In this document: piece by piece, positions 3,001-60,920 of the stretch | How positions within the stretch are numbered: position 1 is the stretch's first letter | How the letters are laid out: each line of letters starts with the position of its first letter | NCBI GenBank assembly: GCA_964016885.1 | Contig: OZ024740.1 | Location: 416,516,001 to 416,580,000 of the forward strand | Length of the DNA stretch: 64,000 nt | Origin: Eledone cirrhosa | Taxonomy: Eukaryota | Direction of reading: 5' to 3' | The notes under the pieces: generated by a model | Database searches by the model: none | What the model saw: the letters and a program-made list of their open reading frames with translations, nothing else | Told to the model about the DNA's origin: nothing | Translations under genes and position numbers: made by a program

Positions 3001-6000
3001 AGAGAGGTAGTGTTGGTGAAGGAGAGGTAGTGTTGGTGAAGGAGAGGTATTGTTGGAGGGGTAGTGTTGGTGAAGGAGAAGTAGTGTTGGTGTAGGAGAT
3101 GTAGTGTTGGTGTAGGACAGGTATTGTTAGAGAGGTAGAGTTGGATAAGGAGAGTTAGTGTAGGTGTAGGAGAGGTATTGTTAGAGAGGTAGTGTTGATG
3201 AAGTAGAGGTTATGTTGGCGAAGGAGAGGTAGTGTTGGTGAAGGAGATGTATTGTTGGAGAGGTAGTGTTGGTGAAGGAGAGGTAGTGTTGGTGTAGGAG
3301 AGGTATTGTTGGAGAAGGAGAGGTATTATTGTAGAAGTAATTTGGGTGAAGGAGAGGTATTGTTGGAGAAGTATTGTTGGTGAAGGAGAGGTATTGTTGT
3401 AGAGGTTGTTTTGGTGAAGGAGATGTATTGTTGGAGAGGTAGTGTTGGTGAAGGAGAGGTATTGTCGTAGAGGTAGTGTTGGTGGAGGAGAAGTATTGTT
3501 GGAGAGGTAGTATTGGTGGAGGAGAAGTATTGTTGGAGAGGTATTATTAGAGAGGTAGTGTTGGTGAAGGAGAGGTATTGTTGGAGAGGTAATGTTGGTG
3601 AAGGAGAGGTATTGTTGGGGAGGTAGTGTTGGTGAAGGAGAGGTATTGTTGGAGAGGTAGTGTTGGTGTTGGAGAGGTATTGTTGGAGAGCTTGTGTTGG
3701 CGCAGGAGAGTTATTGTTGGAGCGGTAGAGTTGGCGAAGGAGAGGTATTGTTGGAGAGTTATTGTTGGTGAAGGAGAGGTAATGTTGGCGAAGGAGAGGT
3801 ATTGTTGGAGAGGTAGAGATGGTGAATGAGAGGTAGTGTTGGCGAAGGAGAGGTATTGTTGGAGAGGTAGAGTTCGATAAGGAGAGTTAGTGTTGGTGTA
3901 GGAGAGGTATTGTTAGAGAGGTAGTGTTGATGAAGGGGAGGTTATGTTGGTGAAGAAGAGGTAGTGTTGGTGAAGGATAGGTATTGTTGGAGAGGTAGTG
4001 TTGGTGAAGGAGAGGTATTGTTGGACAGGTAGTGTTGGTGAAGGAGAGGTAGTGTTGGTGTAGGAGAGGTATTGTTGGAGAAGGAGAGGTATTATTGGAG
4101 AGGTAGAATTGGTGAAGGAGAGGTATTGTTGGAGACGTAGTGTTGCTGAAGGAGAGGTATCATTGGAGAGGTAGTGTTGGAGATGTAGTGTTGTTGAAGG
4201 TGTGGTATTGTTGGAGATGTAGTGTTGGTGAAGGAGAGGTAGTGTTGGTGTAGAGGAGGTATTGTTAGAGAGGTAGTGTTGGTGAAGGAGAGGTAGTGTT
4301 GGTGAAGGAGAGGTATTGTTGGAGGGGTAGTGTTGGTGAAGGAGAAGTAGTGTTGGTGTAGGAGATGTAGTGTTGGTGTAGGACAGGTATTGTTAGAGAG
4401 GTAGTGTTTGTGAAGGAGAAGTAGTGTTGGCGAAGGAGAGGTATTGTTGGAGAGGTAGAGTTGGATAAGGAGAGTTAGTGTTGGTGAAGGAGAGGTAGTG
4501 TTGGTGTAGAGGAGGTATTGTTAGAGAGGTAGTGTTGGTGAAGGAGAGGTAGTGTTGGTGAAGGAGAGGTATTGTTGGAGGGGTAGTGCTGGTGAAGGAG
4601 AAGTAGTGTTGGTGTAGGAGATGTAGTGTTGGTGTAGGACAGGTATTGTTAGAGAGGTAGAGTTGGATAAGGAGAGTTAGTGTAGGTGTAGGAGAGGTAT
4701 TGTTAGAGAGGTAGTGTTGATGAAGTAGAGGTTATGTTGGCGAAGGAGAGGTAGTGTTGGTGAAGGAGATGTATTGTTGGAGAGGTAGTGTTGGTGAAGG
4801 AGAGGTAGTGTTGGTGTAGGAGAGGTATTGTTGGAGAAGGAGAGGTATTATTGTAGAAGTAATTTGGGTGAAGGAGAGGTATTGTTGGAGAAGTATTGTT
4901 GGTGAAGGAGAGGTATTGTTGTAGAGGTTGTTTTGGTGAAGGAGATGTATTGTTGGAGAGGTAGTGTTGGTGAAGGAGAGGTATTGTCGTAGAGGTAGTG
5001 TTGGTGGAGGAGAAGTATTGTTGGAGAGGTAGTATTGGTGGAGGAGAAGTATTGTTGGAGAGGTATTATTAGAGAGGTAGTGTTGGTGAAGGAGAGGTAT
5101 TGTTGGAGAGGTAATGTTGGTGAAGGAGAGGTATTGTTGGGGAGGTAGTGTTGGTGAAGGAGAGGTATTGTTGGAGAGGTAGTGTTGGTGTTGGAGAGGT
5201 ATTGTTGGAGAGCTTGTGTTGGCGCAGGAGAGTTATTGTTGGAGCGGTAGAGTTGGCGAAGGAGAGGTATTGTTGGAGAGTTATTGTTGGTGAAGGAGAG
5301 GTAATGTTGGCGAAGGAGAGGTATTGTTGGAGAGGTAGAGATGGTGAATGAGAGGTAGTGTTGGCGAAGGAGAGGTATTGTTGGAGAGGTAGAGTTCGAT
5401 AAGGAGAGTTAGTGTTGGTGTAGGAGAGGTATTGTTAGAGAGGTAGTGTTGATGAAGGGGAGGTTATGTTGGTGAAGAAGAGGTAGTGTTGGTGAAGGAT
5501 AGGTATTGTTGGAGAGGTAGTGTTGGTGAAGGAGAGGTATTGTTGGACAGGTAGTGTTGGTGAAGGAGAGGTAGTGTTGGTGTAGGAGAGGTATTGTTGG
5601 AGAAGGAGAGGTATTATTGGAGAGGTAGAATTGGTGAAGGAGAGGTATTGTTGGAGACGTAGTGTTGGTGAAGGAGAGGTATTGTTGGAGAGGTAGAGTT
5701 GGCGAAGAAGAGGTATTGTTGGAGAGGTAGTGTTGGTGAAGGAGAGGTATTGTTGGAGAGGTAGAGTGGGTGAAGGAGAAGTATTATTGGAGCGGTAGTG
5801 TTGGTGAAAGAGAGGTATTGTTGAACAGGAAGTGTTGTTGAAGGAGAAGTATTATTGGAGAGGTAAGGTTGGTGAAGGAGAGGTATTGTTGGAGAGGTAG
5901 TGTTGGTGAAGCAGAGATTGTGTTGGCGAAGGAGAGGTATTGTTGGAGAGGTAGTGTTGGTGAAGGAGAAGTTGTGTTGGAGAGGTAGTGTTGGTGAAGG

Positions 6001-9000
6001 AGAGGTAGTGTTGGTGTAGGAGAGGTATTGTTGGAGAAGGAGAGGTATTATTGGAGAAGTAGTGTTGGTGAAGGAGACGTAGTGTTGGTGAAAGTGTGGT
6101 AGTGTTGTAGAGGTAGTGTTGGTGAAGGAGAGGTTTTGTTGGAGAGGTAGTGTTGGTGAAGGATAGTTCTTGTTAGAGAGGTAGTGTTGGTGAAAGAGAG
6201 GTGTTGTTGGAGAGGTAGTGTTGGTGAAGGAGAGGTATTGTTGGAGAGGTAGTGTTGGTTAAGGAGCGTTAATGTTGGTGAAGGAGAGGTAGTGTTGGTG
6301 AAGGAGAGGTGTTGGTGGAGAGGTAGTGTTGGTGAAGGAGAGGTATTGTTGGAGAGGTAGTGTTGGTTAAGGAGCGTTAATGTTGGTGAAGGAGAGGTAG
6401 TGTTGGTGAAAGAGAGGTGTTGTTGGAGAGGTAGTGTTGGTGAAGGAGAGGTATTGTTGGAGAGGTAGTGTTGGTTAAGGAGCGTTAATGTTGGTGAAGG
6501 AGAGGTAGTGTTGATGAAGGGGAGGTTATGTTGGTGAAGAAGAGGTAGTGTTGGTGAAGGATAGGTATTGTTGGAGAGGTAGTGTTGGTGAAGGAGAGGT
6601 ATTGTTGGACAGGTAGTGTTGGTGAAGGAGAGGTAGTGTTGGTGTAGGAGAGGTATTGTTGGAGAAGGAGAGGTATTATTGGAGAGGTAGTGTTGGTGAA
6701 GGAGAGCTATTGTTGGAGAGGTAATTTTGGTGTAGGATAGTTTTTGTTGGAGAGGTAGTGTTGGTGAAGGAGAAGTATTGTCGGAGAGGTAGTATTGGTG
6801 GAGGAGTGGTTGTGTTGGCGAAGGAGAGGTATTGTTGGAGAGGTAGAGTTGGTGAAGGAGAGGCAGTGTTGGTGAAGGAGAGGTAGTGTTGGCGAAGGAG
6901 AGGTATTGTTGGAGCAGTAGAGTTGGCGAAGGAGAGGTATTTTGGGAGAATTATTGTTGGTGAAGGAGAGGTAATGTTGGCGAAGGAGAGGTATTGTTGG
7001 AGAGGTAGTGTTGGTGAAGGAGAGGTAGTGTTGGTGAAGGAGAAGTATCGTTGGAGAAGTAGTGTTGGTTTAGGAAAGGTATTGTTAGAGAGGTAGTGTT
7101 GGTGAAGGAGAGGTATTTTTGGAGAGGTAGTGTTGGTGAAGGAGAGCTTGTGTTGCTGAAGGAGAGGTATTGTTGGTGAGGTAGAGTTGGCGAAGGAGCG
7201 GTATTGTTGGAGAGTTAGTGTTGGTGAAGAAGAGGTTGTGTTGGCGAAGGAGAGGTATTGTTGGAGAGGTAGTGTTGGTGAAGGAGAGCTTGTGTTGTCG
7301 AAGGAGAGGTATTGTTGGAGAGATAGTGTTGGCGAAGGAGAAGTATTGTTGGAGAGGTAGTGTTGGTGAAGGAGAGGTATTGTTTGAGAGGTAGTGTTGG
7401 TGAAGGAGAGGTATTGTTGGAGAGGTAGAGTTGGCGAAGAAGAGGTATTGTTGGAGAGGTAGATTTGGTGAAGGAGAGGTATTGTTGGAGAAGTAGTGTT
7501 GGTGAAAGAGAGGTATTATTGGAGAGGTAGTGTTGGTGGAGGAGAATTTTTGTTGGCAAAGAAGAAGTATTGTTGGAGAGGTAGTGTTGGTGAAGGAGAG
7601 GCATCATTGGAGAGGTAGTGTTGGAGAGGTAGTGTTGGTAAAGATGTGCTATTGTTGGAGAGGTAGTGTTGGTGAAGGAGAAGTATTGTTGGAGAGGTAG
7701 TGTTGGTGGAAGAGAAGTATTGTTGGAGAGGTAGTGTTGGTGGAGGAGTGCTTGTGTTGGCGAAGGAGAGGTATTGTTGGAGAGTTAGTGTTGGTGAAGG
7801 AGAGGTAGTGTTGGTGAAAGAGAGGTGTTGTTGGAGAGGTAGTGTTGGTGAAGGAGAGTTAGTGTTGGTGAAGGAGAGTTAGTGGTGGTGAAGGAGAGGT
7901 GTTGTTGGAGAGGTAGTGTTGGTGAAGGAGAGGTATTGTTGGAGAGGTAGTGTTGGTGAAGGAGAGCTTGTGTTGGCGAACGAGAGGTATTGTTCGAGAG
8001 GTAGATTTGGCGAAAGAGAGGTATTGTTGGAGAGGTAGAATTGGTGAAGTAGAGGTATTGTTGCAGAGGTAGTGTTGGTCTAGGAGAGGTATTTTTGGAG
8101 AGGTAGTGTTGGTGAAGGAGAGGTATTGTTGGAGAAGTAGTGTTGGTGAAGGAGAGGTATTATTGGAGAGGTAGTGTTGGTGAAGGAGAGTTTGTGTTGG
8201 CAAAGGAGAAGTATTGTTGGAGAGTTAGTGTTGGTGAAGGAGAGTTATCATTGGAGAGGTAGTGTTGGAGATGTAGTGTTGGTGAAGGTGTGGTATTGTT
8301 GGAGAGGTAGTGTTGGTGAAGGAGAGGTAGTTTTGGTGTAGGAGAGCTACTGTTGATGTAGATGAGGTATTGTTAGAGAGGCAGTGTTGGTGAAGGAGAG
8401 GTTGTGTTGGTGAAGGAGAGGTAGTGTTGGTGAAGGAGAGGTATTGTTGGAGGGGTACGTTTGGTGAAGGAGAGGTAGTGTTGGTGTAGGAGAGGTAGTG
8501 TTGGTGTAGGAGATGTATTGTTAGAGAGGTTGTGTTGGTGAAGGAGAAGTAGTGTTGGCGAAGGAGAGGTATTGTTGGAGAGGTAGAGTTCGATAAGGAG
8601 AGTTAGTGTTGGTGTAGGAGAGGTATTGTTAGAGAGGTAGTGTTGATAAAGGAGAGGTTATGTGGGTGAAGGAGAGTTAGTGTTGGTGAAGGAGAGGTAT
8701 TGTTGGAGAGGTAGTGTTGGTGAAGGAGAGGTAGTGTTGGTTTAGGAGAGGTATTGTTGGAGAAGGAGAGGTATTATTGGAGAAGTAGTTTGGGTGAAGG
8801 AGAGGTATTGTTGGAGAGGTAGTGTTGGTGAAGGAGAGGTATTGTTGGAGAGGTAGTTTTGGTGGAGGATAGTTCTTGTTAGAGAGGTAGTGTTGGTGAA
8901 GGAGAGGTATTGTTGGAGAGGTATTGTTGGTGAAGGAGAGGTATTGTTGGAGAGGTTGTGTTGGTGAAGGAGAGGTATTATTAGAGAGGTAGTGTTGGTG

Positions 9001-11945
9001 AAGGAGAGGTATTGTCGGAGAGGTAGTGTTGGTGGAGGAGTGGTTGTGTTGGCGAAGGAAAGGTATTGTTGGAGAGGTAGAGTTGGCGAAGGAGAGGTAT
9101 TGTTGGAGAGTTAGTGTTGGTGAAGGAGAGGTATTTTTGGAAAGGTAGAGTTGGTGAAGGAGAGGTAGTGTTGGTGAAGGAGAGGTTTTGTTGGTGAAAG
9201 AGAGGTATTGTTGGAGAGGTTGTGTTGGTGAAGGAGAGGTATTATTAGAGAGGTAGTGTTGGTGAGGGAGAGGTATTGTTGGAGAGGTATTGTTGGTGAA
9301 GGAGAGCTTGTGTTGGCGCAGGAGAGGTATTGTTGGAGCGGTAGAGTTGGCGAAGGATAGGTATTGTTGGAGAGTTATTGTTGGTGAAGGAGAAATTGTG
9401 TTGGCAAAGAAGAAGTATTGTTGGAGAGGTAGTGTTGGTGAAGGAGAGGCATCATTGGAGAGGTAGTGTTGGAGAGGTAGTGTTGGTGAAGATGTGGTAT
9501 TGTTGGAGAGGTAGTGTTGGTGAAGGAGAAGTATTGTTGGAGAGGTAGTGTTGGTGGAGGAGTGTTTGTGTTGGCGAAGGAGAGGTATTGTTGGAGAGTT
9601 TGTGTTGGTGAAGGAGAGGTAGTGTTGGTGAAAGAGAGGTGTTGTTGGATAGGTAGTGTTGGTGAAGGAGAGGTATTGTTGGAGAGGTAGTGTTGGTTAA
9701 GGAGAGTTAGTGTTGGTGAAGGAGAGGTATTATTGGAGAGGTAGTGTTGGTGAAGGAGAGTTTGTGTTGGCAAAGGAGAAGTATTGTTGGAGATGTACTG
9801 TTGGTGAAGGAGAGTTTGTGTTGGCAAAGGAGAAGTATTGTTGGAGATGTACTGTTGGTGAAGGAGAGGTATCATTGGAGAGGTAGTGTTGGAGATGTAG
9901 TGTTGGTGAAGGTGTGGTATTGTTGGAGAGGTAGTGTTGGTGAAGGAGAGGTAGTGTTGGTGTAGGAGAGCTAGTGTTGGTGTAGAGGAGGTATTGTTAG
10001 AGAGGCAGTGTTGGTGAAGGAGAGGTTGAGTTGGTGAAGGAGAGGTAGTTTCGGTGAAGGAGAGGTAGTGTTGGTGTAGGAGAGGTAGTGTTGGTGTAGG
10101 AGAGGTATTGTTAGAGAGGTAGTGTTGGTGAAGGAGAAGTAGTGTTGGCAAAGGAGAGGTATTGTTGGAGAAGTAGAGTTGGATAAGGAGAGTTAGTGTT
10201 GGTGTAGGAGAGGTATTGTTAGAGAGGTAGTGTTGATGAAGGAGAGGTTATGTTGGTGAAGGAGAGGTAGTGTTGCTGAAGGAGAGGTATTGTTGGAGAG
10301 GTAGTGTTGGTGAAGGAGAGGTATTGTTGGAGAGGTAGTGTTGGTGAAGGAGAGGTATTGTTGGAGAGTTAGTGTTGGTGAAGGAGAGGTAGTGTTGGCG
10401 AAGGAGAGGTATTTTTGGAGAGGTAGAGTTGGTGAAGGAGAGGTATTTTTGGAGAGGTTGTGTTGGTGAAAGAGAGTTATTGATGGACAGGTATTGTTGG
10501 TGAAGGAGAGGTATTGTTGGAGAGGTATTGTTGGTGAAGGAGAGGTAATGTTGGCGAAGGAGAGGTATTGTTGGAGAGGTATTGTTGTGAAGGAGAGGTA
10601 GTGTTGGCGAAGGAGAGTTATTGTTGGTGAAGGAGATGTAGTTTTGGTGAAGGAGAGGTGTTGTTGGAGAGGTCGTGTTTGTGAAGGAGAGGTATTGTTG
10701 GAGAGGTAGAGATGGTGAAGGAGAGGTAGTGTTGGCGAAGGAGAGGCATTGTTGGAGAGTTAGTGTTGGTGAAGGAAAGGTAGTGTTGGTGAAGGAGAGG
10801 TGTTGTTGGAGAGGTCGTGTTTGTGAAGGAGAGGTATTGTTGGAGAGGTAGAGATGGTGAAGGAGAGGTAGTGTTGGCGAAGGAGAGGCATTGTTGGAGA
10901 GTTAGTGTTGGTGAAGGAGAGGTAGTGTTGGCGAAGGAGAGGTTGTGTTGGTGAAAGAGAGGTATTGTTGGAGAGGTTGAGTTGGTTAAGGAGAGTTAGT
11001 GTTGGTGAAGGAGAGGTAGTTTTGGTGAAGGAGAGGTGTTGTTGGCGAGGTAGTGTTGGTGAAGGAGAGCTTGTATTGGCGAAGGAGAGGTATTGTTGGA
11101 GAGGTTGAGTTGGTTAAGGAGAGTTAGTGTTGGTGAAGGAGAGGTTGTGTTGGTGAAAGAGAGGTATTGTTGGAGAGGTTGAGTTGGTTAAGGAGAGTTA
11201 GTGTTGGTGAAGGAGAGGTAGTTTTGGTGAAGGAGAGGTGTTGTTGGCGAGGTAGTGTTGGTGAAGGAGAGCTTGTATTGGCGAAGGAGAGGTATTGTTG
11301 GAGAGGTAGAGTTGGTGAAGGGGAGGTATTTTTCGAGAGGTAGTGTTGGTGAAGGGGAGGTATTGTTGGAGAGGTTGTGTTGGTGAAGGAGAGGTATTGT
11401 TGGAGAGGTTGTGTTGGTGAAGGAGAGGTATTGTTGGAGAGTTAGTTTTGGTGGAGGATAGTTCTTGTTAGAGAGGTAGAGTTGGTGAAGGAAAGGTATT
11501 GTTGGAGAGGTATTGTTGGTGAAGGAGAGGTATTGTCGGAGAGGTAGTGTTGGTGGAGGAGAAGTATTGTTGGAGAGGTATTAGTAGAGAGGTAGTGTTG
11601 GTGAAGGAGAGGTATTGTTGGAGAAGTAATGTTGGTGAAGGGGAGGTATTGTTGGAGAGGTAGTGTTGGTGAAGGAGAGGTATTGTTGGAGAGGTAGAGT
11701 TGGCGAAGGAGAGGTATTGTTGGAGAGGTAGTGTTGGTGAAGGAGAGGTATTGTTGGAGCGGTAGAGTTTGTGAGGTAGTGTTGGTTAGGTATTGTTGGA
11801 AAGGTAGAGTTGGCGAAGGAGAGGTATTGTTGGAGAGGTAGTGTTGGTGAAGGAGAGGTAGTGTTGGCGAAGGAGAGGTATTGTTGGAGAGGTAGATTTG
11901 GGGAGGTAGATTTGGTGAGGTAGTGTTGGTAAATGAAAGGTATTG
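1..11945. repeat. Complex satellite/minisatellite array: GGAGAGGTA(G/T)TGTT 14-mer with optional GGTGAA 6-mer; common 34-bp unit; ~1.52 kb higher-order repeat
   Basis: Continuous tandem GGTGAAGGAGAGGTATTGTT/GGAGAGGTAGTGTT units. Variant blocks recur at offsets of 1518 (ORF ends 530/2048) and 1522 (identical ORFs at 3626/5148). The array runs off the window start. Confidence 0.97.
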
Positions 11946-12090
11946 TAGCAAAGAATTACGGCCCTTTATTATCTGAGTTCAAATCCTGCCGAAGTTAACT
12001 TTGCCTTTCATGTTTACGGGGTCGATAAAAAATGTACCAGTAATACACCAAGATAATTGCTGGCCTTGTGCCAAAAGTAGAAACAATTTT
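11946..12090 (+). mobile_element. tRNA-derived SINE (5'-truncated) inserted in the satellite edge
   Basis: B-box-like GAGTTCAAATCC, then GTTAACTTTGCCTTTCAT..GGGGTCGATAAAA..CTGGCCTTGTGCCAAAAGTAGAAACAAT. Same family as 51140, 53490 and 55156. Confidence 0.85.
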
Positions 12091-24819: not shown

Positions 24820-26880
24820 CTGCTCTGCGCGAGCATCGAGTGCTCAACCGGCACACCACCTACAGACGCATTTACCTGCAACCCTACAACAACTATATAT
24901 AGTCCGCTAACAAGGAAATCTTTGATAACAACGCGGAATATTACAACGCAGCTCTAAGTAAGGCGGCACATAGCCAAAATATAACATAGTTTGAAACGCC
25001 GGGATGGGGATGGCCCAACGGACACCCACACCCGCGTTGTCCGGGAGGGGGCGAACCCTAACAATACAGGCAGAACAGAAACAAATAAACACCATGAGCC
25101 CGACACCACCACACGGGCGATGGTGACGAGTACTCTTAATGAGATGAAACCCAATATGAGTAGCAGTTTCAGGGGTGATGATAACCACCTCGGGCCCGAC
25201 GACCCCAACCGCAGGAAACGGGGGGGGGGGTAACGGGGGACCACCCCACAGTGGATCTCCCAGCGTAGGCAACGACCACCCCACATATTCGGGCCGTGGA
25301 GATAGCAAAACGCATAGCGCCCAAAGGGGAAACAGCAATACGGGAACCACCAGCAACCCAACAACTCTCCAACAACTCACGACGCCCCAACTCACCCATA
25401 TAGGAGTAGACGCAGAAAAATCACGTGGTACAACCCACCCTACTCAGCGGCCCTAAAGAACAGCTTGGCCCGATTATTCTTTGGAGCACTTGATAAATGC
25501 TTCCCGAGGGACCATAGATACCACAAGATCTTCAACAGACACACTGTGAAGCTCTCGTATTCCACCACGAAAAATCTGGCCCAACACATAGCTAGCATCA
25601 ACAGGAGTAGGCTTAAAAAACACACACAACCAGAAGATTGCAATATAAGCACCCAGCAGAACCATGTGGAAGGAGGGAGGGGGGGGTCTAGTGCCCACCC
25701 AAGAAACTCAAACTGACCCGGGGAACCCCCACCGTGCCCGCGGGAATACCACCATGCAACATGTAACGAGAACCCCACACTAGGCACGGAGAGGTCGACC
25801 ACACTCTGCAACTGCAGAAACCCTGAAACATGCCCCCTTAGTAATGAATGCCTTAAGAAGAACCTAATATACGGATATATGGTTAAAATCCCCAACTCCG
25901 AACACCTCTACATAGGAGCCACATCAACGAGCTCTAAATACCGTTGGTATAACCATCGCCATTCCTTCAACAAGGAGGCCAAAAGGAAAAGTACGGCTCT
26001 TTCCGATCTGATCTGGAAGCTGAAGCTGGACAGGACCCCGTACTCTATGGCCTGGTCCATAATCAGGAAGGTACCACCCGATACAGGGGGATCTGGCATA
26101 TGCAAACTATGTCTGAACGAGACCCTCGAGATACTAAGAGGTGGAAGCCGCCTGATAAATCTCAGAACTGACTTCTTCGGGACATGCAGACACCTCAGTG
26201 CCGGGACCTTCCTCAAGCTATATGGACAGTAGCAACACACTGAGATGTGAACTCCCCTCAAGCTATAGGGACTTCTCCAGAACATGTAGACACCTCTCGG
26301 CCAGACCTCCCTCAAGCTAGTGACAACACCATAGGTTGGGAACTCCCCTCAAGCCATAGGGACCTACCCAGGCTGAGCAGACACCATGATAGCCTAGAGA
26401 TTGATTCTGACACAGCCTTTCTAATTTGGCCAACATCTTTATAACACACACACACATTTTATTTTACTTGATTTTTCATTGATTTTTCATTGATTTTTCA
26501 TTGATTTTTCATTTGTTTTGTTTTCTTCACCCTATTGCCTTATATTTAAGTTGAGAATGGTTATAACACACACACTTTCTATTTAATTATCTTATTTCGT
26601 TTTATTCTTTTACCATCTTGTTCCTCCTACCACTTTATCCAACATCTTTCTGACCTTGAGGTTGGTTATAGCACACGCACATTTTATTTTATTTGGATCT
26701 TCACTTCTATTTTCCACTTTCCATTCTCATATTTCATTTTTCATTTTTCAATTTCCATTTTCATTTCTCATCTTTCATTTTTCATTAATTAATTTTTCAT
26801 TTATTTTCTATTTATTATTTATTTTCTGTTTTCTTCATTTTATTGCCTTCTATCCCCCCCCCCCACCACCACCACAAGAG
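24820..26880 (+). mobile_element. Penelope-like element 3' part (probably Hydra-type clade): RT thumb, CxCx5Cx5C linker, GIY-YIG, pyrimidine-rich 3' UTR
   Basis: WYNPPYS..LDKCFP..KIFNRHTVKLSYS, CNCRNPETCPLSNEC, LIYGY..YIGATS..RWYNH, C-terminal CKLCLNE. Starts at a (TA)n tract. Confidence 0.85.
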
Positions 26881-27061: not shown

Positions 27062-28273
27062 AGATCAAAGGATGGTTAAAAGAGTTCCATGTATTCTATT
27101 ATGCGCATTTCAAAAACAAATATCATCATGCGATGACATTTGCGTTTTCGTCAGATAAAATAGGGAGACATGATATGAAGGTTAAAAAACACTTGTGAAT
27201 AGTGCAGATTTGAATCAACATATGAAAAGAAATTTAAGATTGATGTGTGATATTGGGGAAAAAAATGAGGGGGTGGGGGGAAAGGATGAAAAAGAGGAGG
27301 AGATGAGAGTAAGAATGGTGGGGGAGGAGTATAATAAGGAAGGATGAGAGATGGGTGATAGAAAGAGAGAGATAGCCTTTATAACTGAGAAAAATATTGT
27401 TTCACAGAGAGAGGTTAAAAAGCCGTTGGAAGATAATATATAATTTAAAAGAATTTGAAAATTGATGAAGAGAAAAAAAATTAATGAAGAGAAAAAAAAT
27501 TAAGAATAATGTTAAATTAAGGTTTGTATATTGAAGGGTTTAATAATATGTGCGATGAAAAGAAATTGTTAATATGTATTATTAAAATAAAAATATTAAT
27601 GTTATTAAGGATATAATGTGAAAAGAAGTAGAAGAGTGGATGAATTATGAGAGGAATTAGTTAGTGTTTAAGTTTGTTTTTATGTAATGCAATATGTATG
27701 CGTAATATATGTAAATAGTTTGTTTACAAATGAGCGTAGAAAGCAAAGAAGAAAATAGTGTTTAAGGAAGAGAAGACTCTAACAACAAAATATATATGTT
27801 TATGAAGTATTTCCTAATGGTAATAGTATAATGTAATAAAGGAGATTAGTTAGGGTTTAAGTTTGTTTTTATGTATTGTGATATGTAATATGTAAAAGTT
27901 AGACGAGCATGAAAGGGAGAAAAAAATATAATGAATTGAGGAGGAATAATCAACGTCAAAAAATGTTTATGTTTACGAAGGATTTTTAGAAGTAATACTA
28001 TAAAGTATTTAAAAGGTAATAATAAGTTTTATGGCCAATGATATGAAGGAAGAAGGAAGAGTGGCTATATTGTGGTGAGTAATAATAAGAATTGAGAAGT
28101 ATCTAGGAAGAAAAAGTACAGATTAGAGGTTAGAAATTAAAAGAAGAGAGGAAGAAAGGGAATTGATAAATAGGAAAGATATAGAATGAGTAACTAGTGT
28201 TATATAATGTATAATAAACATCATTGAAATAAGGTAGAAAGATGGGTATATTTTTAAAGAAATATACATATAT
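27061..28273 (-). mobile_element. Probable 3' UTR/pLTR of the minus-strand PLE at 34545-36830, separated from it by the PLE-2 insertion
   Basis: Pyrimidine-rich on the minus strand, ends in a hammerhead next to (TA)n. AATATACATATATG (28261-28274) and AATATATATATATG (34531-34544) flank PLE-2. Confidence 0.65.
27092..27162 (-). ncRNA. Type I hammerhead ribozyme, intact core
   Basis: UAUUUUAU-CUGACGA-[~15-bp stem II, GCAU loop]-GAAA-UGCGCA-UA-AUAGAAUA. 8-bp stem I and palindromic helix III. Confidence 0.88.
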
Positions 28274-28459
28274 GTCGTTTCTGAATTTGTTTAGCAAGAT
28301 TCTTTATCTGAAATCGTGTGTTGAAACCGATATTGTTATACTTTGGGAGGGTCATGTTGCCAATAAGAAACACACGCACCAGTTGCTTTCACTTTAATTT
28401 ATTATAATAAATTTATAAATTTCTGGTTGGTTCCACAACCAGATAGTTGTTTATATATT

Positions 28460-28502
28460 GTCATAGTTCTTTCGTCACACACTCTGTGACCTCTTCAGTG
28501 AA
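28460..28502 (-). ncRNA. Minimal type I hammerhead-like motif in the PLE-2 pLTR
   Basis: UCA-CUGAAGA-G-GUCAC/GUGAC-GAAA-GAAC-UA-UGA. Extra G before stem II and very short helix III. Confidence 0.65.
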
Positions 28503-30313
28503 TGGGGATTCTTTTCTTTGTTTTGTGCCTCTCCTTTGTTCTGTCCTACGCCATTTTGTTTCTGTGTGTGTGTTGTGTGCTCAGTCTGCGCATGCACCAC
28601 ATCCGGGTGTCTGTGTGTGTTTATGTTCATTTATATATTTGTTTATTTACATGTTACTGGTTGGTTGTTTGTTCTATGTGTGTGTGTGTTTTCATTTTGT
28701 CCTTAATTGTAAGTTGTGATGTTGCTGTTCCACTCATATTTTCTATTTAATTTTGGTTGTAATTCTTTTATGTTTATTGCCTCTGTGATTTGTCTAAACA
28801 TTGCGTCTTTTCTGTGTGTAGATTCTATTTTTATTTCTATGTTCTCTAATTTACCCTTGTGTTCTATTTTAGCATGTTGGTAGAGTACAGATGATTCTTT
28901 ACTATCTTGAAGGTCTCGCCAGTGTTCATTTATCCGTTCCCCTACACTACGAGCTGTCTCACCTATGTACACTATATTTTTGTCTCTACATTGTCCTTCA
29001 GTACATCTTATGCTATACACTACATTTCTAGTTTTACAGTTAATATGGGGGCTTATTTTACAGGTTATACATTTCTTATCTATACATGAGGGTCTTTGAA
29101 AAGGGTATGTCTTGCTAATAAGTGTTTTTACGGAGGTACCTGGTCTTTCTACTATCTTAATATTGAGTTTATGTTTATCTAGGGCCCTTCTAAATTTGTA
29201 AGCTAATTCACCTCTAGGGGTTGTATCGATGAACATTACACTCTGGTATTTATTGCTATCATACCATGAGTTTATTCTATTAGCCTTGTTCCTAGTTCTT
29301 TCTATTCTATTCCAAAATTTGCTCCTATACAAGGGGCAGGTCCCATTTATGTCATTATTTACCATTTTTTCCCATTTGGTTCTGGCTCCTCTATACACTC
29401 TGATTTTATCTCTCTGATTGTAGCCAGAGAACTGCATACGGTGGATGAAGTGTTGTATGTGTCTCTCTAGTTCTTCGGGGTTGCACATGCGGGACACGTT
29501 TCTCATCACCCGTACCAAATCCGCAATCAGTATGTTGATTTAGGTATGGTCCGAAACGGCCGAGTTTCGGTGGATCAGATGTTTGGAAGTCATGGGTTTG
29601 GCATAATGGGAATGGAGGATTTGTTTTTTGTTATAAATGGTATCTAACCAGAGCTCTGTGCCTAGTACAGGTAATCGATGGTTGGGGTGTTTAAAAACAC
29701 TTATTAGCAAGACATACCCTTTTCAAAGACCCTCATGTATAGATAAGAAATGTATAACCTGTAAAATAAGCCCCCATATTAACTGTAAAACTAGAAATGT
29801 AGTGTATAGCATAAGATGTACTGAAGGACAATGTAGAGACAAAAATATAGTGTACATAGGTGAGACAGCACGTAGTGTAGGCGAACGGATAAATGAACAC
29901 TGGCGAGACCTTCAAGATAGTAAAGAATCATCTGTACTCTACCAACATGCTAAAATAGAACACAAGGGTAAATTAGAGAACATAGAAATAAAAATAGAAT
30001 CTACACACAGAAAAGACGCAATGTTTAGACAAATCACAGAGGCAATAAACATAAAAGAATTACAACCAAAATTAAATAGAAAATATGAGTGGAACAGCAA
30101 CATCACAACTTACAATTAAGGACAAAATGAACACGCACACACACATAGAAAAACAACCAACCAGTAACATGTAAATAAACAAATAAATAAATGAACATAA
30201 ACACACACAGACACCCGGATGTGGCGCATGCGCAGACTGAGCACACAACACATACACAGAAACAAAATGGCCAGAACAAAGGAGAGGCACAACAACAAAG
30301 AAAAGAATCCCCA

Positions 30314-30356
30314 TTCACTGAAGAGGTCACAGAGTGTGTGACGAAAGAACTATGAC
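30314..30356 (+). ncRNA. Minimal type I hammerhead-like motif in the PLE-2 pLTR
   Basis: Same motif as 28460-28502, on the plus strand. Confidence 0.65.
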
Positions 30357-31301
30357 AATATATAAACAACTATCTGGTTGTGGAACCAACCAACCAACCA
30401 GAAATTTATAAATTTATTATAATAAATTGAAGTGAAAGCAACTGGTGCGTGTGTTTCTTATTGGCAACATGACCCTCCTAAAGTATAACAATATCGGTTT
30501 CAACACACGATTTCAGATAAAGAATCTTGCTAAACAAATTCAGAAACGAAATATCGTAAGCCTTAGCCAAGCTAACAAGATACTGAAAACCACCATGTTC
30601 TGTTGTCTACGAAAAACCATAACATCTCGACAACTACACTTCATAAAAGAATGTGCCTCGTCCCGAGTTTACACCAACACCATCAACACCAACGTAAGAA
30701 GATTACAACTCACCAAAAAACAAGCAGATAGGCTAAAACGAACACTAATTCTAAATATAAAAAAGAAGATCTATAGAGAATTATGTCACCAAGAAAAACA
30801 TAAGCGTAACCTAATACAAGAAATAGCTAGGATCACCACACCAAGAGAGAAACTAATATTTTAAGCCTTATACGTCCTGAAGAACAGTACATTACTCAAG
30901 AATGTGATAAGCACTTTAACAAGAAACTAAAGTGGCTTAAGCAGATAAAGCTAAATCAGGATACTGTAGAGAATACCAATAGATATCCCGACAAAATTGA
31001 CGGTATAAATATGGCCGACACCTCATTAACAGATGAGTTCAACAACAACAACAACACAAATATATACGGCAACACGGTAATAGATGACGATGAGTTATCT
31101 GTATTACTTCTACCACCGAAATTTGCGACATTCAAGAAGGTAAATATGATTAGTTGTCTGTCAGAAATAGAAAAATCATTTACAAAACTACGTTGGAGCC
31201 TCAAAAACAAAAACAAAAACAAAATTAACATTATACGCACACACATATACAACAACAACAGACACACAGACACAAACAACAATAACAACAACACACACAC
31301 C

Positions 31302-31334
<33 letters not shown>

Positions 31335-34300
31335 AATAATAACATACCCAGAAACAACAACAACAGACACGCAGACACAAACAACAATAACAACACACAC
31401 AACAATAATAACACACACGGAGACAACACACATCAACAACAGCACACATCAACACAACAACACACACACATTCAATGCCTCTTACCACCACCACAATCTT
31501 AACAAACACACAGACACAGAAAACAAGTAATGACAGTAGCACAGAAATCACAGAAATAAGGGAAAGTAATAGGATTAAAAGAAGGGAGACTAAGGACAAA
31601 GAAAATAACCAAGACGAACACACAGACACACAAAACAATGACCCAGTGGAAAGAGACAGGAGTAATTATGAGAGACATAGAAACAACCATGAGGCTGTTG
31701 GTGGAAATAGAAATAGAAACAACACAACTAACAATAACAATAGCACTAGTACACATAAAGCAGCAGCCTGGAACTCTACTTTTTATAATCCCTCCGATAA
31801 ATCGTTCGACCTGCGACGAGTCCACGCCACGACTTTACCATTTAACAAATGCACGCAATTACCGTCGCAAGTCGATGAACAAACAGAAGCACAATTTAGT
31901 ATAGCTAGATCCGAACTTAGAAATATTATAGAACAGTATAGCAAGAAGCATAATAGAATGGAGGCCCAGCAACTGGGAGAAAAATCTGCAAATGGCTTGC
32001 GTAAGCTCATGCAGCGCTCGCGTAATGGAGAGATAGCATGCTTTCCAACAGACAAGTCTGGCAGAATGTCGGTTGACAGCCTGCCAAATTACATCCAGGC
32101 AATGCAACCCCACATCACAAACACAAGAGAGGTAACACCACAGGAGCATGAGGATAGAGAAAAAGCCCTCAATGCCCATATGGTGATGTGGACGAATATA
32201 ATGCAGCCCAACAAAAGGACTGCCAACAACTTCCAGGCCTGGAACAGTGACGTGCCGGCGTTGTATGGGCTTCGAAAAGACCATAAAACGGGCAGTGACC
32301 CTGTCACGGGACCACCAACATGGCCAGTCTGTGGAGCTAACATTGCTAGTAACTACAGACTGTCCTACCTCCTCTCCCTGATCATACGCCCCATCATTGA
32401 AATGTCCCCAGATGTATGTGACAGCACGGAGGACCTCCTCAGCAGAATCGCCGAGAGTAACCGATCTAGGGATCTAACAAACTGCATAATAGGTAGTATG
32501 GATGTTGTGTCCCTGTATCCATCTATTGACGTGGATTTTGCTGTGGAGAAATGCGTAGAAATGATCAGTGAGAGCAATGTTGAGTTCCGTGGGATTGATA
32601 CCAGTGAGCTGGGACTCCTACTTAAACTTACCTATACTAATAATTACCTAGACACATATGACCTTAGCAACCTGTGCCCTACAAGACCAGCAAGAGGCAG
32701 ACCACCTACCATTACCTCAATGGCCAAGAAAACCCACACAGATAGATGGAACGGGTGGACCAGAGCCATACGGACACCCGAAAACCACGATGAACTGAAG
32801 AAAATGATTGCACATGCGGTAGGGGCCAGCATAAAACTAACCCTTAAGGAACATATGTTCAAATTTAATGGAAAAACATATGCCCAAGAGGAAGGAGCAG
32901 CCATTGGTGTTAGCATTGCAGGCGACATAGCTAACTTATTCATGGTATGGTGGGACAGTTAACTTAAACTTAAACTTAAAGAACAATTAGAAGACCCCTT
33001 AACCCTGATAATGTACTCCCGCTACGTTGATGATATAAACATCGTAATTAAGACACCCCCACTAGAGAACAGTCAGGAACTAGAGAAAAACACAATGGAA
33101 AGCATCCAGCAAATAGCTAACTCCATCCACCAGAGTATTAGAGTTACTATAGACTACCCAAGTAAACACCCCAACCATCGATTACCTGTACTAGACACAG
33201 AGCTCTGGTTACATACCATTAATAACAAAAAACAAATCCTCCATTCCCATTATGCCAAACCCATGACTTCCAAACATCTGATCCACCGAAACTCGGCCGT
33301 TTCGGACCATACCAAAATCAACATACTGATTGCGGATTTGGTACGGGTGATGAGAAACGTGTCCCGCATGTGCAACCCCGAAGAACTAGAGAGACACATA
33401 CAACACTTCATCCACCGTATGCAGTTCTCTGGCTACAATCAGAGAGATAAAATCAGAGTGTATAGAGGAGCCAGAACCAAATGGGAAAAAATGGTAAATA
33501 ATGACATAAATGGGACCTGCCCCTTGTATAGGAGCAAATTTTGGAATAGAATAGAAAGAACTAGGAACAAGGCTAATATAATAAACTCATGGTATGATAG
33601 CAATAAATACCAGAGTGTAATGTTCATCGATACAACCCCTAGAGGTGAATTAGCTTACAAATTTAGAAGGGCCCTAGATAAACATAAACTCAATATTAAG
33701 ATAGTAGAAAGACCAGGTACCTCCGTAAAAATACTTATTAGCAAGACATACCCTTTTCAAAGACCCTCATGTATAGATAAGAAATGTATAACCTGTAGAA
33801 TAAGCCCCCATATTAACTGTAAAACTAGAAATGTAGTGTATAGCATAAGATGTACTGAAGGACAATGTAGAGACAAAAATATAGTGTACATAGGTGAGAC
33901 AGCTCGTAGTGTAGGGGAACGGATAAATGAACACTGGCGAGACCTTCAAGATAGTAAAGAATCATCTGTACTCTACCAACATGCTAAAATAGAACACAAG
34001 GCTAAATTAGAGAACATAGAAATAAAAATAGAATCTACACACAGAAAAGACGCAATGTTTAGACAAATCACAGAGGCAATAAACATAAAAGAATTACAAC
34101 CAAAATTAAATAGAAAATATGAGTGGAACAGCAACATCACAACTTACAATTAAGGACAAAATGAAAACACACACACACATAGAACAAACAACCAACCAGT
34201 AACATGTAAATAAACAAATAAATAAATGAACATAAACACACACAGACACCCGGATGTGGTGCATGCGCAGACTGAGCACACAACACACACACAGAAACAA

Positions 34301-34354
34301 AATGGCGTAGGACAGAACAAAGGAGAGGCACAAAAACAAAGAAAAGAATCCCCA

Positions 34355-34397
34355 GTCACTGAACAGGTCACAGAGTGTGTGACGAAAGAACTGTGAC
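34355..34397 (+). ncRNA. Inactivated hammerhead motif in the PLE-2 3' pLTR
   Basis: CUGAACA (G8C) and UG at the cleavage position; stems retained. Confidence 0.55.
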
Positions 34398-34544
34398 AAT
34401 ATATAAACAACTATCTGGTTGTGGAACCAACCAACCAACCAGAAATTTATAAATTTATTATAATAAATTGAAGTGAAAGCAACTGGTGCGTGTGTTTCTT
34501 ATTGGCAACATGACCCTCCCAAAGTATAACAATATATATATATG

Positions 34545-36830
34545 CCTTTGAGAAAAAGGATTTTAAACTGGTAAAGTATTAGATATTAGCTGTATATTTT
34601 ATAGAATGTTCTGTGGAATTTATGCAAGCAGAGAGAAAATAAGTCAGTGCGTCTATTTATTATAGAATCTAAATTAGATATAATGGTAAATTTCTCACAT
34701 AAACAAAGATTACATGTTTTGTATAGAGAGGCATTCTTCAAGTAGGGAGAGGCAGAACAAACTTTCCTGCAAGAGATGTTATAGTTAATATTTTTGTCTT
34801 TCAAGGACCATATGAGTTCTGAGAGTGGTGTTGGTTCTTTTAAGTTGGTATTTAAAAGAAGAATGATGATTATAAAGACGGGCTTTAAAGGAGTTGGAAG
34901 TGGAGCCAAAATAGGTAAAGGAATTGGTGTCAGTTATAACTTTACATTCATAGATTAAGTTTTTTTCAAGACAATTGTTGTTGAGAGGACATTTATTTTT
35001 AACAGGGCAATTACAATTGCGATTAGAGAGATTAACAGAGTTATTAACAAGTGACCTAGTGTTATCTATAGGAGGAATTGGAAGTTATTTACGATAGGAA
35101 TAATAGTTTCCTGATTTAGATTGGTATTAAGAACATTTGACGAAGTTACGTTTGACGTCGTATTTGGGTTTGCAGAAACTAGCCCAGAGTTAACAATGAC
35201 GTCGGGAGTACTATTACTATTATTATGATATTCAGTGTTGGAAGGAAGTGATTTAGTATTTAATATTTTATTGTTGTGTTTAAAGATAATATTGGAGATG
35301 TTGGAGGAAATCGAATAGGAAAATTTTATAGTATGTTTGTTAAATATTTTACTATAGATATGTGAGGGAGGGAAGCATTTATTTAAAGCACTAAAGAATA
35401 ATTTAGGAATATTATTATTAATAGAGATGGAGAAAGGAGCATTATACCAGATTATATTTTTGTATCTAGGTCTTTTATTAAAGTTATTAGAATGATCATA
35501 ATTAAATATTTTACTGTAAGATCTTCTAGGATTGATTTCTTTACTGTATTTGATTTTATCAGGATAACCGGCTTTAGAAAGCGCGTTATTATAGTAATTG
35601 GCGTTAGCATCAAAAATATTTTTATTAGATGATAGGTTTGATATTCTTTTTCCAATATTACTAACTATAGCATTTTTAATGTTAGTGGGGTGGTTAGATT
35701 TAAAATTAACATAATTTAGATTCTCATTGTTTTTATGGTAAGGGTAATATAGGCCAGTGTCAAGATTAAGGGATATATCCAAGAAGTTAGCTAGTTTGAC
35801 GTTGTTATCAAATTCAATTTTTAAGTTATGTTGGTTAAAGAGATCACGTATAGTGTTCTTAATATTAAGGTTAACTATGTTGCAATTTAAGATAGTAAAA
35901 AGTCCATCGTCCCGATAAATTCCACCGCGAAGTTGAGGAATTTTCCGATTCAAAGAGTTCAAAATAAAGATACCAATTAAATCTGTCAATTGAGATGAAT
36001 CGGATGCACCCATTGTAATGTCAAAGTTGTTGGAGGTATCAGCTCTAGTCCAGTAATCATTGTTGAGAAGTGAGGGTGAAATAGAAGAATAGTAGCTGGC
36101 AATATCAAATTGAATAAATTTTTGTTTGTTTTTCTTATTCAAGTTGTTGAACCAGCCAATTACTTCAGATGTACCAAACCATAAATTTAAGTTAGAAGTA
36201 GAGCAATTAGAACGAACCTGTGGGATAATTCTATTCAAGATGGCTTTGCTAACAACCCCCAAATCTGATTTAGAGGGGGCGATTAGTTTAACAGGTAGTT
36301 CCGTACGAAAGTTGTTTTTGTGATCCTTGAGATTTATCCTCGGAGTTCTTGCGAGGAATGGTTCGGTCTTTTTTTCGATGCCAAGTTTTGACATAATCTC
36401 AGAAGCTTCAAAGTTTATGGAATCTAAATTATCATGGTTAGTTTTGCGATATTTCTTCCTTAGTTCTTTAAGGATAAGGTTGTTATAGTTATCCTTAGAT
36501 ATACCATATAAATTATTTGTTTTGTTGGAGTGGACTAAAACATTTTTTGAGGAATTAAGGTTTAAAATCGTATTCTTGAGATTTACAAGGTGCTCTTGTC
36601 TTCTATAAGGGTTTCTCTTGAATTTAAGATTTTTTATAATGTTAGTTAACTCTTCCTCGAATTGCACTAAATTTTTGTTGGAAGGAGGATTCCTTCTAGA
36701 GTTAAATAAATGATCGAGAAAGTTATGTTCCTTGGTATAGAAGTTCCCTTTTAGGCGCTGGTCATAGTAAAATGTATTCGGCCAATTCTATCTTAAGATA
36801 TAATTAACCTGTAATTGTAAGATAGCATTG
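34545..36830 (-). mobile_element. Penelope-like element (probably Hydra-type clade), AT-rich, degenerate
   Basis: QFDIASYYSSI, ITMGASDS, GGIYRDDGL, NFLDISLNL, WYNAPFS, CNCPVKNKCPLNNNC linker, CNLCLCEK. Apparent internal RT deletion and frameshifts. Confidence 0.88.
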
Positions 36831-57537: not shown

Positions 57538-57587
<50 letters not shown>

Positions 57588-57589
<2 letters not shown>

Positions 57590-58438
57590 TGTTATACTTT
57601 GGGAGGGTCATGTTGCCAATAAGAAACACACGCACCAGTTGCTTTCACTTCAATTTATTATAATAAATTTATAAATTTAGGAATTTATAAATTTCCGGTT
57701 GGTTGGTTGGTTCATATATTGTCAAAGTTCTTTCGTCATACATTCTGTGACCTCTTCAGTGACTGGGGATTCTTTTCTTTGTTTTTGTGCCTCTCCTTTG
57801 TTCTGTCCTACGCCATCTTGTTTTTGTGTGTGTTGTGTGCTTAGTTTGCGCATGTGTTACATCCGGGTGTCTGTGTGTGTTTATATTTGTTTATTTATTT
57901 GTTTATTTACATGTTATTGGTTGGTTGTTTGTTCAACCAAAATTAAATAGAAAACATGAATGGAACAGCAACATCACAACTTACAATTAAGGACAAAATG
58001 AAAACACACACACACACAGAACAAACAACCAACCAGTAACATGTAAATAAACAAATAAATAAACAAATATAAACACACACAGACACCCGGATGTAACACA
58101 TGCGCAAACTAAGCACACAACACACACAAAAACAAGATGGCGTAGGACAGAACAAAGGAGAGGCACAAAAACAAAGAAAAGAATCCCCAGTCACTGAAGA
58201 GGTCACAGAATGCGTGACGAAAGAACTTTGACAATATATGAACAATCATCTGGTTGTGGAACCAACCAACCGGAAATTTATAAATTCCTAAATTTATAAA
58301 TTTATTATAATAAATTGAAGTGAAAGCAACTGGTGCGTGTGTTTCTTATTGGCAACATGACCCTCCCAAAGTATAACAATATCGGTTTCAACACACGTTT
58401 TCAGATAAAGAATCTTGCTAAACAAATTCAGAAACGAA

Positions 58439-58440
<2 letters not shown>
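57588..58440. mobile_element. Inverted pair of PLE-2-family pLTRs (no ORF body) inside (TA)n; hammerhead motifs at 57721-57763 (-) and 58190-58232 (+)
   Basis: Homologous to the PLE-2 terminal repeats (30060-30550, 34100-34533). GUCA-CUGAAGA-G-GUCAC..GUGAC-GAAA-GAAC-UU-UGAC. Confidence 0.9.
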
Positions 58441-58514
<74 letters not shown>

Positions 58515-58618
58515 GAATGTATATATAGTGTATTTTGCAATACACTGTATGCTTAATTAAAATCATTTCGAAGACCTTACGCTATTGTTTTAGAGTAGTG
58601 ACAGTCTCACTTACTTTA

Positions 58619-58715
58619 AATTTTCAGCAAACAGGGGAGATAAAGCTGACAGAGCTCTGTTTCGTACTTTTTGGTACTTATCAAAGCTAACTACTCCACC
58701 TGTTTGCTGAAAATT
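58619..58715 (-). ncRNA. Extended type I hammerhead ribozyme with U3-A8 core variant
   Basis: AAUUUUCAGCAAACAGG-U-GGAG-UAGUU-AGCU-UUGAUAA-GUAC-CAAAAA-GUAC-GAAA-CAG-AGCU-CUG-UC-AGCU-UUAU-CUCC-CCUGUUUGCUGAAAAUU. All three helices pair; GUC cleavage triplet. Confidence 0.85.
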
Positions 58716-58944
58716 CACGAGTTTCGAAATCATCAGGAAACAAACGGTTACCAAAAACACATATATATATATATATGGCTCTGTCACCCATGCTAGCGTG
58801 GAAAACGGACTTTAAACGAAGATGATGATGATGATGATGATGATGATATATTTGATAATCTCCCACATGGTTAAGAAACAATTTAGGCAGTATTCGGCTG
58901 CGCTCTCTAGCACCTAGCCCACTCGCCGTAAGGCTCCAATCACA

Positions 58945-60790
58945 AAGGTTTCGCTTTGTACTTAGGCAAGGCGGGTCTTCTGTATGATTGTGTAGCACCA
59001 AAGATCTCGGTCAAGTGACATTATCTTGGAGAGGTGTAAGTGTGTGAGGTCGGAATTTATCAAGTCCTCCCAGGTTTTTCTGGGTCTGCCTACTCCGTGG
59101 CTACCGTCTATTTTGATCGCCCTGCACTTTTTTATACAGCTGTCGTCTTTCATGCGCATCACGTGACCGTACCAACGTAGTCTTCTCTCGAGTAAACAAC
59201 ATCTGATCCCTCTTATTCCTAATTTCTCCCTAAGTTCGTTTATGCTTTGCCGTTCACGTATATTACTATTACACATCCAGCGGAGCATGCAAGCTTCGTT
59301 CCTTTCCAGTATGCGTATGTCCTCTGCACACAATGCCCAAGTCTCACTGCCTTGTAACATTGCTGTTCGTATGCAGGCATCATACAGCCTGCCTTTCATT
59401 TTTAGAGAGAACCCTTTAGCGGCCAATAGTGGGATAAGCTCTCTGAACTTTTTCCATCCCGTTCTGACTCTAGCTACTGTACTTTCAGAGCACCCTCCAG
59501 CACTGCTGATTTTGTCACCCAGGTAACGGAAGGTGTCCACTATTTCTATAGAACCATCTGTGCAATGGAATGAGCTAGTATTCTGTGGGCACTTGCTGCT
59601 ACTTATTGCACCAGAGCACCGGCCACATATAAAATCTATATTCTTAGTTAGCTTACCTGTGATCCCAGTAGATCTTTTATGCACCCATACTTTGCATTTG
59701 GGACATAAAATGGAGTTTCTGCCTGTTCCTTTCCTACACACTGAGCATGGCCATTTCCCGGATGGGACCGGTGCCCTATTTTCCTTCCTACAAACTAAAA
59801 CTTTAGTCTTAGACAGGTTAATTTTGAGGCCTTTTGATTCTAGGCCATGCTTCCATGTTTCGAATTTCTTCTCTAGTTCAGCAATTGATTCAGCTATGAG
59901 CGTTAGATCATCTGCGTATAGGAGTTCCCATGGGCAGCCGGTCTTGAACTCCACTGTTATAGCCTGAAGGGCAATAATAAATAGTAGGGAGCTAAGAACG
60001 GAGCCCTGATGAACACCAACTTTTACACTAAACTCTTCACTATATTCGTTGTTAATTCTAACCTTGCTGACTGTTTCTTTATACATGGCTTGTATAGCTC
60101 CCACAAGCCATTCATCAACACCTAGTTTTTTAAGAGCCTACCAGATAATAGAGCGGGGGACTCTGTCAAAGGCTTTCTCCAAGTCAACAAAAGCTAAGTA
60201 TAGGGGTTTGCTTTTAGCTAGGTACTTCTTCTCTAGTTGTCGTACAATGAAAAGAGCGTCTGTGGTACTTTTACCTGACACAAACCCGAACTGCATTTCA
60301 TCTGGATCAATTCGCTCTCTGATTAGTTGCGCTATTACTTTTTCTGTGACCTTCATGATCTGGTCGATTAATTTAATGCCTCTATAGTTACCCCTATCTA
60401 GGGCATCTCCTTTACCCTTGTAGCAATTAATGGTGATGCTGCAACGCCAGTCCTACGGAACGACCCCATTCTGTATGACTTGGTTTACTATCCGGGTGAC
60501 CATAGTGTGTCCCACCGTTCCAGATGCTTTCAGCATTTCAGCAACTATTTCCAAAGGCCCAGCCGCCTTACCCGTCTTCATATCTTTGATTGCCTTACTT
60601 ATTATACTACCTTCAACTTGCACTGCTGGTCCCTCTATTGGATCGATGTGGAGGAGACTGTCTTTCTCCCATTTATTCTCCTCATTTAGTAGCCTTTTGT
60701 AGTGACACTTCCAAGCTACCTTCTTATCAGCGTCAGTGATGGCAAATACACCATCATCATTCAAGACACACTTCTCCCCGACAATATCAC
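58945..60790 (-). mobile_element. RTE LINE, 5'-truncated, 3' UTR missing
   Basis: 380-aa ORF piece with LLYADD, finger and C-terminus; upstream RT pieces with stops. Confidence 0.93.
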
Positions 60791-60920
60791 GGTTTATATA
60801 TATATATATATATCATATATATAAATATATATATATATATTATATATATATATATCATATATATAAATATATATATTATATATATATATATATCATATAT
60901 ATAAATATATATATATATAT

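Follow-up and report, generated by a model that had tools for sequence, protein, structure and literature searches.

A U3-A8 hammerhead ribozyme lineage carried by non-LTR retrozymes of Eledone cirrhosa, with insertion footprints resembling those of Penelope-like elements

The window analysed in this study is a stretch of 64,000 nucleotides from the genome of Eledone cirrhosa (contig OZ024740.1, positions 416,516,001 to 416,580,000, forward strand). At 58619-58715 it carries, on the minus strand, a hammerhead motif that belongs to a truncated copy of a 320-bp repeat, placed between a (TA)n tract and a short unrelated piece, with a palindrome of a Penelope-like element (PLE) next to the tract. 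The features of the locus are as follows:

57578..58439, unstranded: head-to-head pLTR palindrome of a Penelope-like element, a neighbour outside the unit
58440..58513, unstranded: (TA)n tract against the 3' end of the arm, the putative target
58505..58713, minus strand: solo arm of the 320-bp retrozyme unit, truncated at its 5' end and matching the L029 monomer at 97-98%; numbered from the cut site, it holds unit 255-320 followed by 1-143
58619..58715, minus strand: type I hammerhead with an interrupted stem I of 25 pairs, assigned by sequence, fold and Rfam comparison
58647..58648, minus strand: predicted cleavage site 3' of C17 (GUC, C17 = 58648), by hammerhead numbering
58649..58660, minus strand: helix III, ACAG/CUGU, a perfect 12-nt palindrome (4 pairs and a 4-nt loop)
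58664..58677, minus strand: stem II, GUAC/GUAC capped by loop CAAAAA; covariation across subfamilies at pairs 2 and 4
58678..58684, minus strand: core UUGAUAA, with U3 = 58684 and A8 = 58679, from the constrained fold and family counts
58716..58760, unstranded: unrelated segment of the 5' junction, present in one copy at ≤1 mismatch

Read along the minus strand from 58715 to 58619, the motif runs through the 5' arm of stem I, UUGAUAA, stem II, GAA, helix III, GUC and the 3' arm of stem I. All the parts listed in a preliminary description of this DNA (the UUGAUAA core, a 4-bp stem II with a CAAAAA loop, ACAG/CUGU, the GUC site and a stem I of about 25 bp) were found on this strand, and the cut that it placed between 58648 and 58647 agrees with the hammerhead numbering. 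When the fold is constrained to a hammerhead, stem I is built of 17+4+4 pairs flanking an internal loop; three helices are present with the open end at stem I, stem II and distal stem I covary, and the core fits N3-UGA-N-N8-A (UUGAUAA), with GAAA, U16.1-H17 (GUC) and a Watson-Crick 3-8 pair. The stability of the fold (z = -7.9) was equalled by none of 200 shuffles, and by this modelling the hammerhead layout is beyond chance. The top Rfam match is Hammerhead_HH9 (RF02275), with 21.7 bits against a gathering score of 52 and an E-value of 0.0027 on 201 nt. With regard to a possible tertiary contact between loops I and II, loop II is identical in letters to that of HH9 and the loop of stem I is similar; unlike HH9, the motif has a shorter proximal stem I, which in the window subfamily contains U-U mismatches, and carries no sign of domestication.

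The lowest-energy fold predicted is not a hammerhead: it pairs the core strand with helix III and lies 3.5 kcal/mol below the hammerhead fold, in a nearest-neighbour model that leaves out tertiary contacts. The gap between the two folds is similar across lineages, with medians of 2.65 in 24 C3-G8 motifs and 2.9 in 75 U3-A8 motifs. Proximal stem I of the window subfamily has 4 Watson-Crick pairs and two U-U mismatches, against 6 pairs in most C3-G8 sisters, and pairing has been regained there in the oldest U3-A8 subfamily. The idea that U3 was favoured by weakening a misfold draws on one natural C3-A8 copy only (gap 5.5 versus 3.5 kcal/mol) and remains speculation, because the lineage medians do not differ. 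The motif had been expected to fold as a monomer; a monomer fold is indeed possible, but a dimer is open too, since helix III is a perfect palindrome. Positions 3 and 8 form a Watson-Crick pair in the C3-G8 form, as stated in the available text of PMC3884650, and the part of PMC3088659 consulted describes several natural U3-A8 hammerheads as active in vitro, in keeping with the earlier statement that such swaps can retain activity. The variant hammerhead is real and likely functional.

The unit around the motif had been estimated at about 250 bp. It proved to be a 209-bp piece of a 320-bp unit, and the adjoining 58716-58760 (~45 bp) is unrelated to it. The minus strand of this junction piece reads CUGAUGA followed closely by GAAAC, resembling a collapsed hammerhead remnant. 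Complete units are repeated three times in L029 and about 18 times in L095, so that the hammerhead lies inside tandem repeats with a 320-bp period, within the 150-450 bp of retrozymes, and the window copy is a sub-monomer. Its GC content is 33%, under the 45-50% limit; its longest stop-free frame is 53 aa, consistent with the absence of an ORF noted before; its longest purine run is 6, and it has no LTR-internal-LTR layout. The monomer RNA is predicted to form a stable self-paired structure (z = -5.5; 0 of 100 shuffles). A tRNA-derived SINE was considered and ruled out, as ARAGORN found no tRNA gene in the unit and simple Pol III A and B box patterns were absent from it.

The copies of this repeat are numerous. 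A DNA search of the animal's own genome (3.0 Gb) returned 2,645 candidates, and the 40 that were scored are mostly 94-100% identical; the 320-base repeat occupies more than a thousand places, with a 26-nt anchor outside the ribozyme matched exactly at 1,576. The window copy shares 99.5% identity across 200 bp with L002 on another contig. Two intact tandem cores are present in only 2 of 71 loci, and for this reason most copies, including that of the window, are dead ends; the window copy, which has a single ribozyme and falls short of one unit, would be unable to give a circle alone.

The surroundings are rich in other repeats. The palindrome at 57578-58439 contains C3-G8 minimal hammerheads at 57759 (minus strand) and 58194 (plus strand), with a tail of about 60 nt on its right arm. 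Taken together, 28247-34545 and 57578-58439 show a Penelope-like element with reverse transcriptase and endonuclease frames (31412-34153), head-to-head pLTR palindromes that carry C3-G8 minimal hammerheads, and a one-sided tail of ~60 nt. Further PLE reading frames lie at 35066-36787 (minus strand) and 25717-26232 (plus strand), the latter with a Hydra-type CxCX5C linker. An RTE-type LINE fragment with RVT_1 and PHD matches (58946-60795, minus strand) lies upstream of the ribozyme on their shared strand, and a transcript that continued past the fragment would be predicted to reach the cut site. Over the 12 kb of positions 1-12000 the GC skew is extreme (~+0.93), which may reflect a long simple tandem repeat.

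We then asked how the 3-8 pair is distributed among the copies. A genome search with the exact 32-nt core pattern gave 272 matches, and the reversed control gave 0. Within the stem II context of the window, exact patterns gave 272 U3-A8, 0 C3-G8, 1 C3-A8, 1 A3-A8 and 1 U3-G8; the preliminary description had named as a refutation the case that all sister copies carry CUGAUGA, and by these counts that case does not hold. Looser patterns on the same scaffold found U3-A8 at a minimum of 886 places and C3-G8 sisters at a minimum of 548, arms and tandem units being counted, while controls gave 0. A sample independent of the core was taken from 71 loci fetched by the anchor (places 1 to 100 in the list for contig C1, one array left out), with 94 anchors, 63 of them spanning the core. 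These 63 comprised 57 U-A, 2 U-G, 2 A-A, 1 G-A, 1 gap and no C-G, and pair 2 of stem II in the same sample was U-A in 45 and C-G in 16.

Many copies, tandem arrays and covariation, all proposed as checks at the outset, were recovered. In a comparison of 12 representatives picked by hand from the subfamilies, both sides had changed in 10 of 29 pairs, including the 3-8 pair (7 C-G, 5 U-A); none of 500 shuffles reached 10 pairs, a result that is not a probability because relatedness inflates it, and slid controls reached 1-3 pairs. The 132 nt that follow the cut were used for a tree of 65 rows, rooted on a 310-bp sister family as outgroup. In it, C3-G8 subfamilies form a ladder and all 34 U3-A8 rows sit on a nested branch (95/87, from a bootstrap that had not converged), into which one C3-G8 copy (L270) also falls. 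A one-clade test (p 0.456) neither rejects nor proves the monophyly of U3-A8. From this topology it follows that U3-A8 is derived, probably arose once, and was followed by several subfamilies. Earlier trees had given a clean split between U3-A8 and C3-G8 because the oldest U3-A8 subfamily was absent from them, and the rooted tree that includes it supersedes that split. As judged from the genomic copies, U3-A8 is fixed in the lineage and derived, and compensatory changes in stem II followed. The expectation of an undescribed retrozyme-like family is supported by a non-coding tandem unit of 320 bp with U3-A8 fixed.

The comparison with other organisms was restricted to contigs at least 80% alike. 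In the X4 and X6 contigs (organisms B and C) units are joined in tandem and stem II shows compensatory substitutions, and no variant letter is listed for positions 3 and 8. Loose ends bearing C3-G8 cores occur in X4 and X8. One deep contig spanning the ribozyme in run X5, whose type is not on record, was not counted as evidence. Three unrelated C3-G8 hammerhead loci were seen in viral contigs.

The outgroup is a distant sister family with units of 310-311 bp, 68% identical, a C3-G8 core and 18,142 pattern matches. This family (L229-L253, for example G000:C1:1239928-1244213) is far larger and forms long head-to-head arrays, and its hammerhead has a short palindromic helix III and a GUA site. 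Its junction motif is present in contigs of four other organisms. In its arrays the short end was seen in two, with the tailed end opposite it in one.

The anatomy of the insertions is described from the same core-independent sample. Of its 71 loci, 69 were scored and 47 of these are two-armed and head-to-head, with 3' ends pointing outward. These ends are concentrated at unit 141-145, within the TA run of the unit itself, or at 167-177; where both ends of a two-armed locus are canonical, 29 of 32 combine one short and one tailed end (p 1.3e-6), the tail being 26-29 nt and confined to one end. The (TA)n tract abuts 85 of 95 canonical 3' ends. In a second sample selected by the core, which partially overlaps these loci, 100 of 101 loci were scored: 65 are two-armed, 33 of 38 pair a short with a tailed end, and 113 of 133 canonical ends lie at (TA)n, while 5' ends are scattered and abut (TA)n in only 5 of 35 cases. 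Target-site duplications are unreadable because the insertions sit inside (TA)n. Inverted 5'-truncated arm, one-sided tail and microsatellite target together compose a footprint of the PLE type.

No step in 5' truncation was found at the cut site, through which 66 of 84 arms pass, with a stop rate of 0.18 before and 0.19 after it. The missing step is compatible with circles and equally with uncut multimers. Separately, 12 of the 84 arms stop at unit 11-19, which is 22-30 nt upstream of the anchor and inside the 3' strand of stem I; these stops suggest stalling or switching of a reverse transcriptase at the hairpin.

Seven retrozyme arms are joined to PLE sequence with no spacer. The partners of five are of the Hydra type with a CxCX5C linker (L018 and L019 inverted; L002, L026 and L046 in tandem), and two, L101 and L146, are Neptune-like, with a CX4CxxC linker in their family. 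These fusions came to light when two sets of junction flanks, 65 and 22, were compared with a library of ten elements, and the 65 also among themselves; the ratio of Hydra to Neptune fusions is accordingly rough. They span more than one PLE clade, and neighbouring insertions followed by deletion could be their source. No homology was detected between the unit and the ends of PLEs in eight PLE ends, 25 Hydra-type loci and 25 loci of a second Hydra-type family. As a separate observation, one Hydra-type family (L274-L298, L002:2142-2300, L046:1738-3032) has in its 3' region a minimal hammerhead-like motif that is itself U3-A8 (UUGAGAA), with 29 exact pattern matches and a weak stem I; this family is fused to the retrozyme at two loci and has no detectable homology to the unit.

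The reading that we hold with good confidence is that the window contains a 5'-truncated copy of a non-LTR retrozyme with U3-A8 fixed, whose ribozyme likely still cleaves and which was likely copied into (TA)n by PLE enzymes. Under the proposed mechanism, tandem source loci would be transcribed, and the U3-A8 swap, by keeping the 3-8 pair, would let the RNA cut itself to 320-nt monomers, which a host ligase would close into circles. A PLE endonuclease/reverse transcriptase, most likely of the Hydra type, would then nick a (TA)n tract, and each of the two target ends would serve as a primer, one at the (UA)n run of the unit and the other 26-29 nt further 3'. Copying would cross the cut site and halt at scattered points, leaving head-to-head arms, and the window copy would be a dead-end product. 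We put forward more tentatively, at somewhat less than even chance, the fuller account in which a single C-G to U-A switch kept cleavage and gave rise to several subfamilies across related species, Hydra-clade enzymes insert by two-ended (TA)n priming, and the short/tailed asymmetry and the fusions record the mechanism and name the partner.

One alternative, which we regard as unlikely, is a repeat family spread by PLEs with a slow or dead U3-A8 ribozyme, in which uncut multimers serve as templates and RNA shape or recognition by a PLE protein is the reason why the fold persists. The lack of a step in 5' ends at the cut site, the competing fold with the weaker proximal stem I, and the Xenopus retrozymes tested, 8 of 9 predicted dimers of which failed to cleave according to the consulted portion of a 2026 preprint (bioRxiv 10.64898/2026.07.22.740005), would all suit it. 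It is opposed by the change of both 3-8 partners with single changes rare, and by the constancy of the remaining core while stem II went on to acquire compensatory changes in several subfamilies and other organisms.

We give a small chance to the possibility that an autonomous PLE still to be discovered has the 320-bp unit as its pseudo-LTR and that the copies are its 5'-truncated ends. The insertion anatomy is PLE-like, and the same preprint reports, in the part available, that Xenopus retrozymes are similar to pLTRs. As against this, no ORF with reverse transcriptase and GIY-YIG bounded by the repeat was found in the loci sampled, long arms enter the previous unit and not an ORF, and the fused PLEs come from several unrelated families, join the unit at differing positions and have dissimilar ends of their own.

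It is very improbable that the motif is a domesticated ribozyme controlling a nearby BPI-like host gene, as had been suggested earlier. An intact core would be predicted to cut any minus-strand read-through transcript, but the copy is young and truncated, 99.5% identical to one on another contig and set among other repeats, and scanning 8 reading frames of the window gave no BPI-like match; a genome-wide BPI search was uninformative, its controls also giving no match. The reading of the motif as a dead CUGAUGA-family copy with two transitions by chance, for which the C3-G8 sister families of this genome could have been the source, can be dismissed as refuted by the 272 exact U3-A8 matches against 0 C3-G8 with the same stem II and by the 57 of 63 core-independent copies.

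Natural U3-A8 cores and retrozymes have each been published separately. In the retrozyme model, as given in the accessible parts of PMC7229834 and PMC7761336, tandem transcription is followed by self-cleavage, ligation into circles and reverse transcription by an autonomous element; the latter, a 2020 review, states in the text available that no motif in metazoan retrozymes reveals the mobilising element, while the 2026 preprint, in the portion consulted, treats retrozymes as derived from PLEs and argues for PLEs as mobilisers from co-occurrence and pLTR similarity, thereby proposing them as partners (bioRxiv 10.64898/2026.07.22.740005). The metazoan non-LTR retrozymes of coral, mussel and axolotl, as presented in those parts of PMC7229834 and PMC7761336, share with our family the type I hammerhead, a stable helix III and low-GC non-coding tandem repeats of 150-450 bp, from monomers to multimers. 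Ours differs in the fixed U3-A8 pair, the mostly sub-dimer head-to-head insertions, the one-sided tail, the (TA)n target and the PLE fusions. The Schistosoma mansoni hammerheads (PMC4209133, in the sections available) show the same compensated 3-8 swap, with about 1,300 matches, although they are minimal, PLE-borne and mostly single, whereas here the motif is full-size in a tandem unit with C3-G8 ancestors in the same genome.

EN+ PLEs of the Hydra and Neptune clades offer the closest parallel in insertion. As far as the text available goes (bioRxiv 10.1101/2021.04.23.441226), PLE insertions have an inverted 5'-truncated copy with a 30-40-bp tail on one end, and all Hydra families insert at (TA)n and have a CxCX5C linker. 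Alike are the 5' truncation, the inverted copy, the tail on one end, (TA)n and a hammerhead near the 3' end; in contrast to these elements, the unit has no reverse transcriptase or GIY-YIG ORF, repeats itself, has a tail of 26-29 nt instead of 30-40 bp, and has no homology to the PLE ends tested. Neither this retrozyme family nor a head-to-head layout of retrozyme insertions had a prior report in the literature searched, which consisted mainly of open-access main texts. What is new is a full-size retrozyme lineage on the U3-A8 swap, together with insertion footprints that point to a mobilising partner.

These results provide a natural series of ribozymes within one genome, from C3-G8 ancestors through rare single-change copies to U3-A8 descendants, and thus a testbed for the way in which a core pair may be swapped without loss of function. 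They also imply that screens relying on CUGANGA alone would overlook a large U3-A8 family. Finally, the insertion footprints constitute a separate and more mechanistic line of evidence on the mobiliser of retrozymes, and indicate a PLE clade in which it can be tested.
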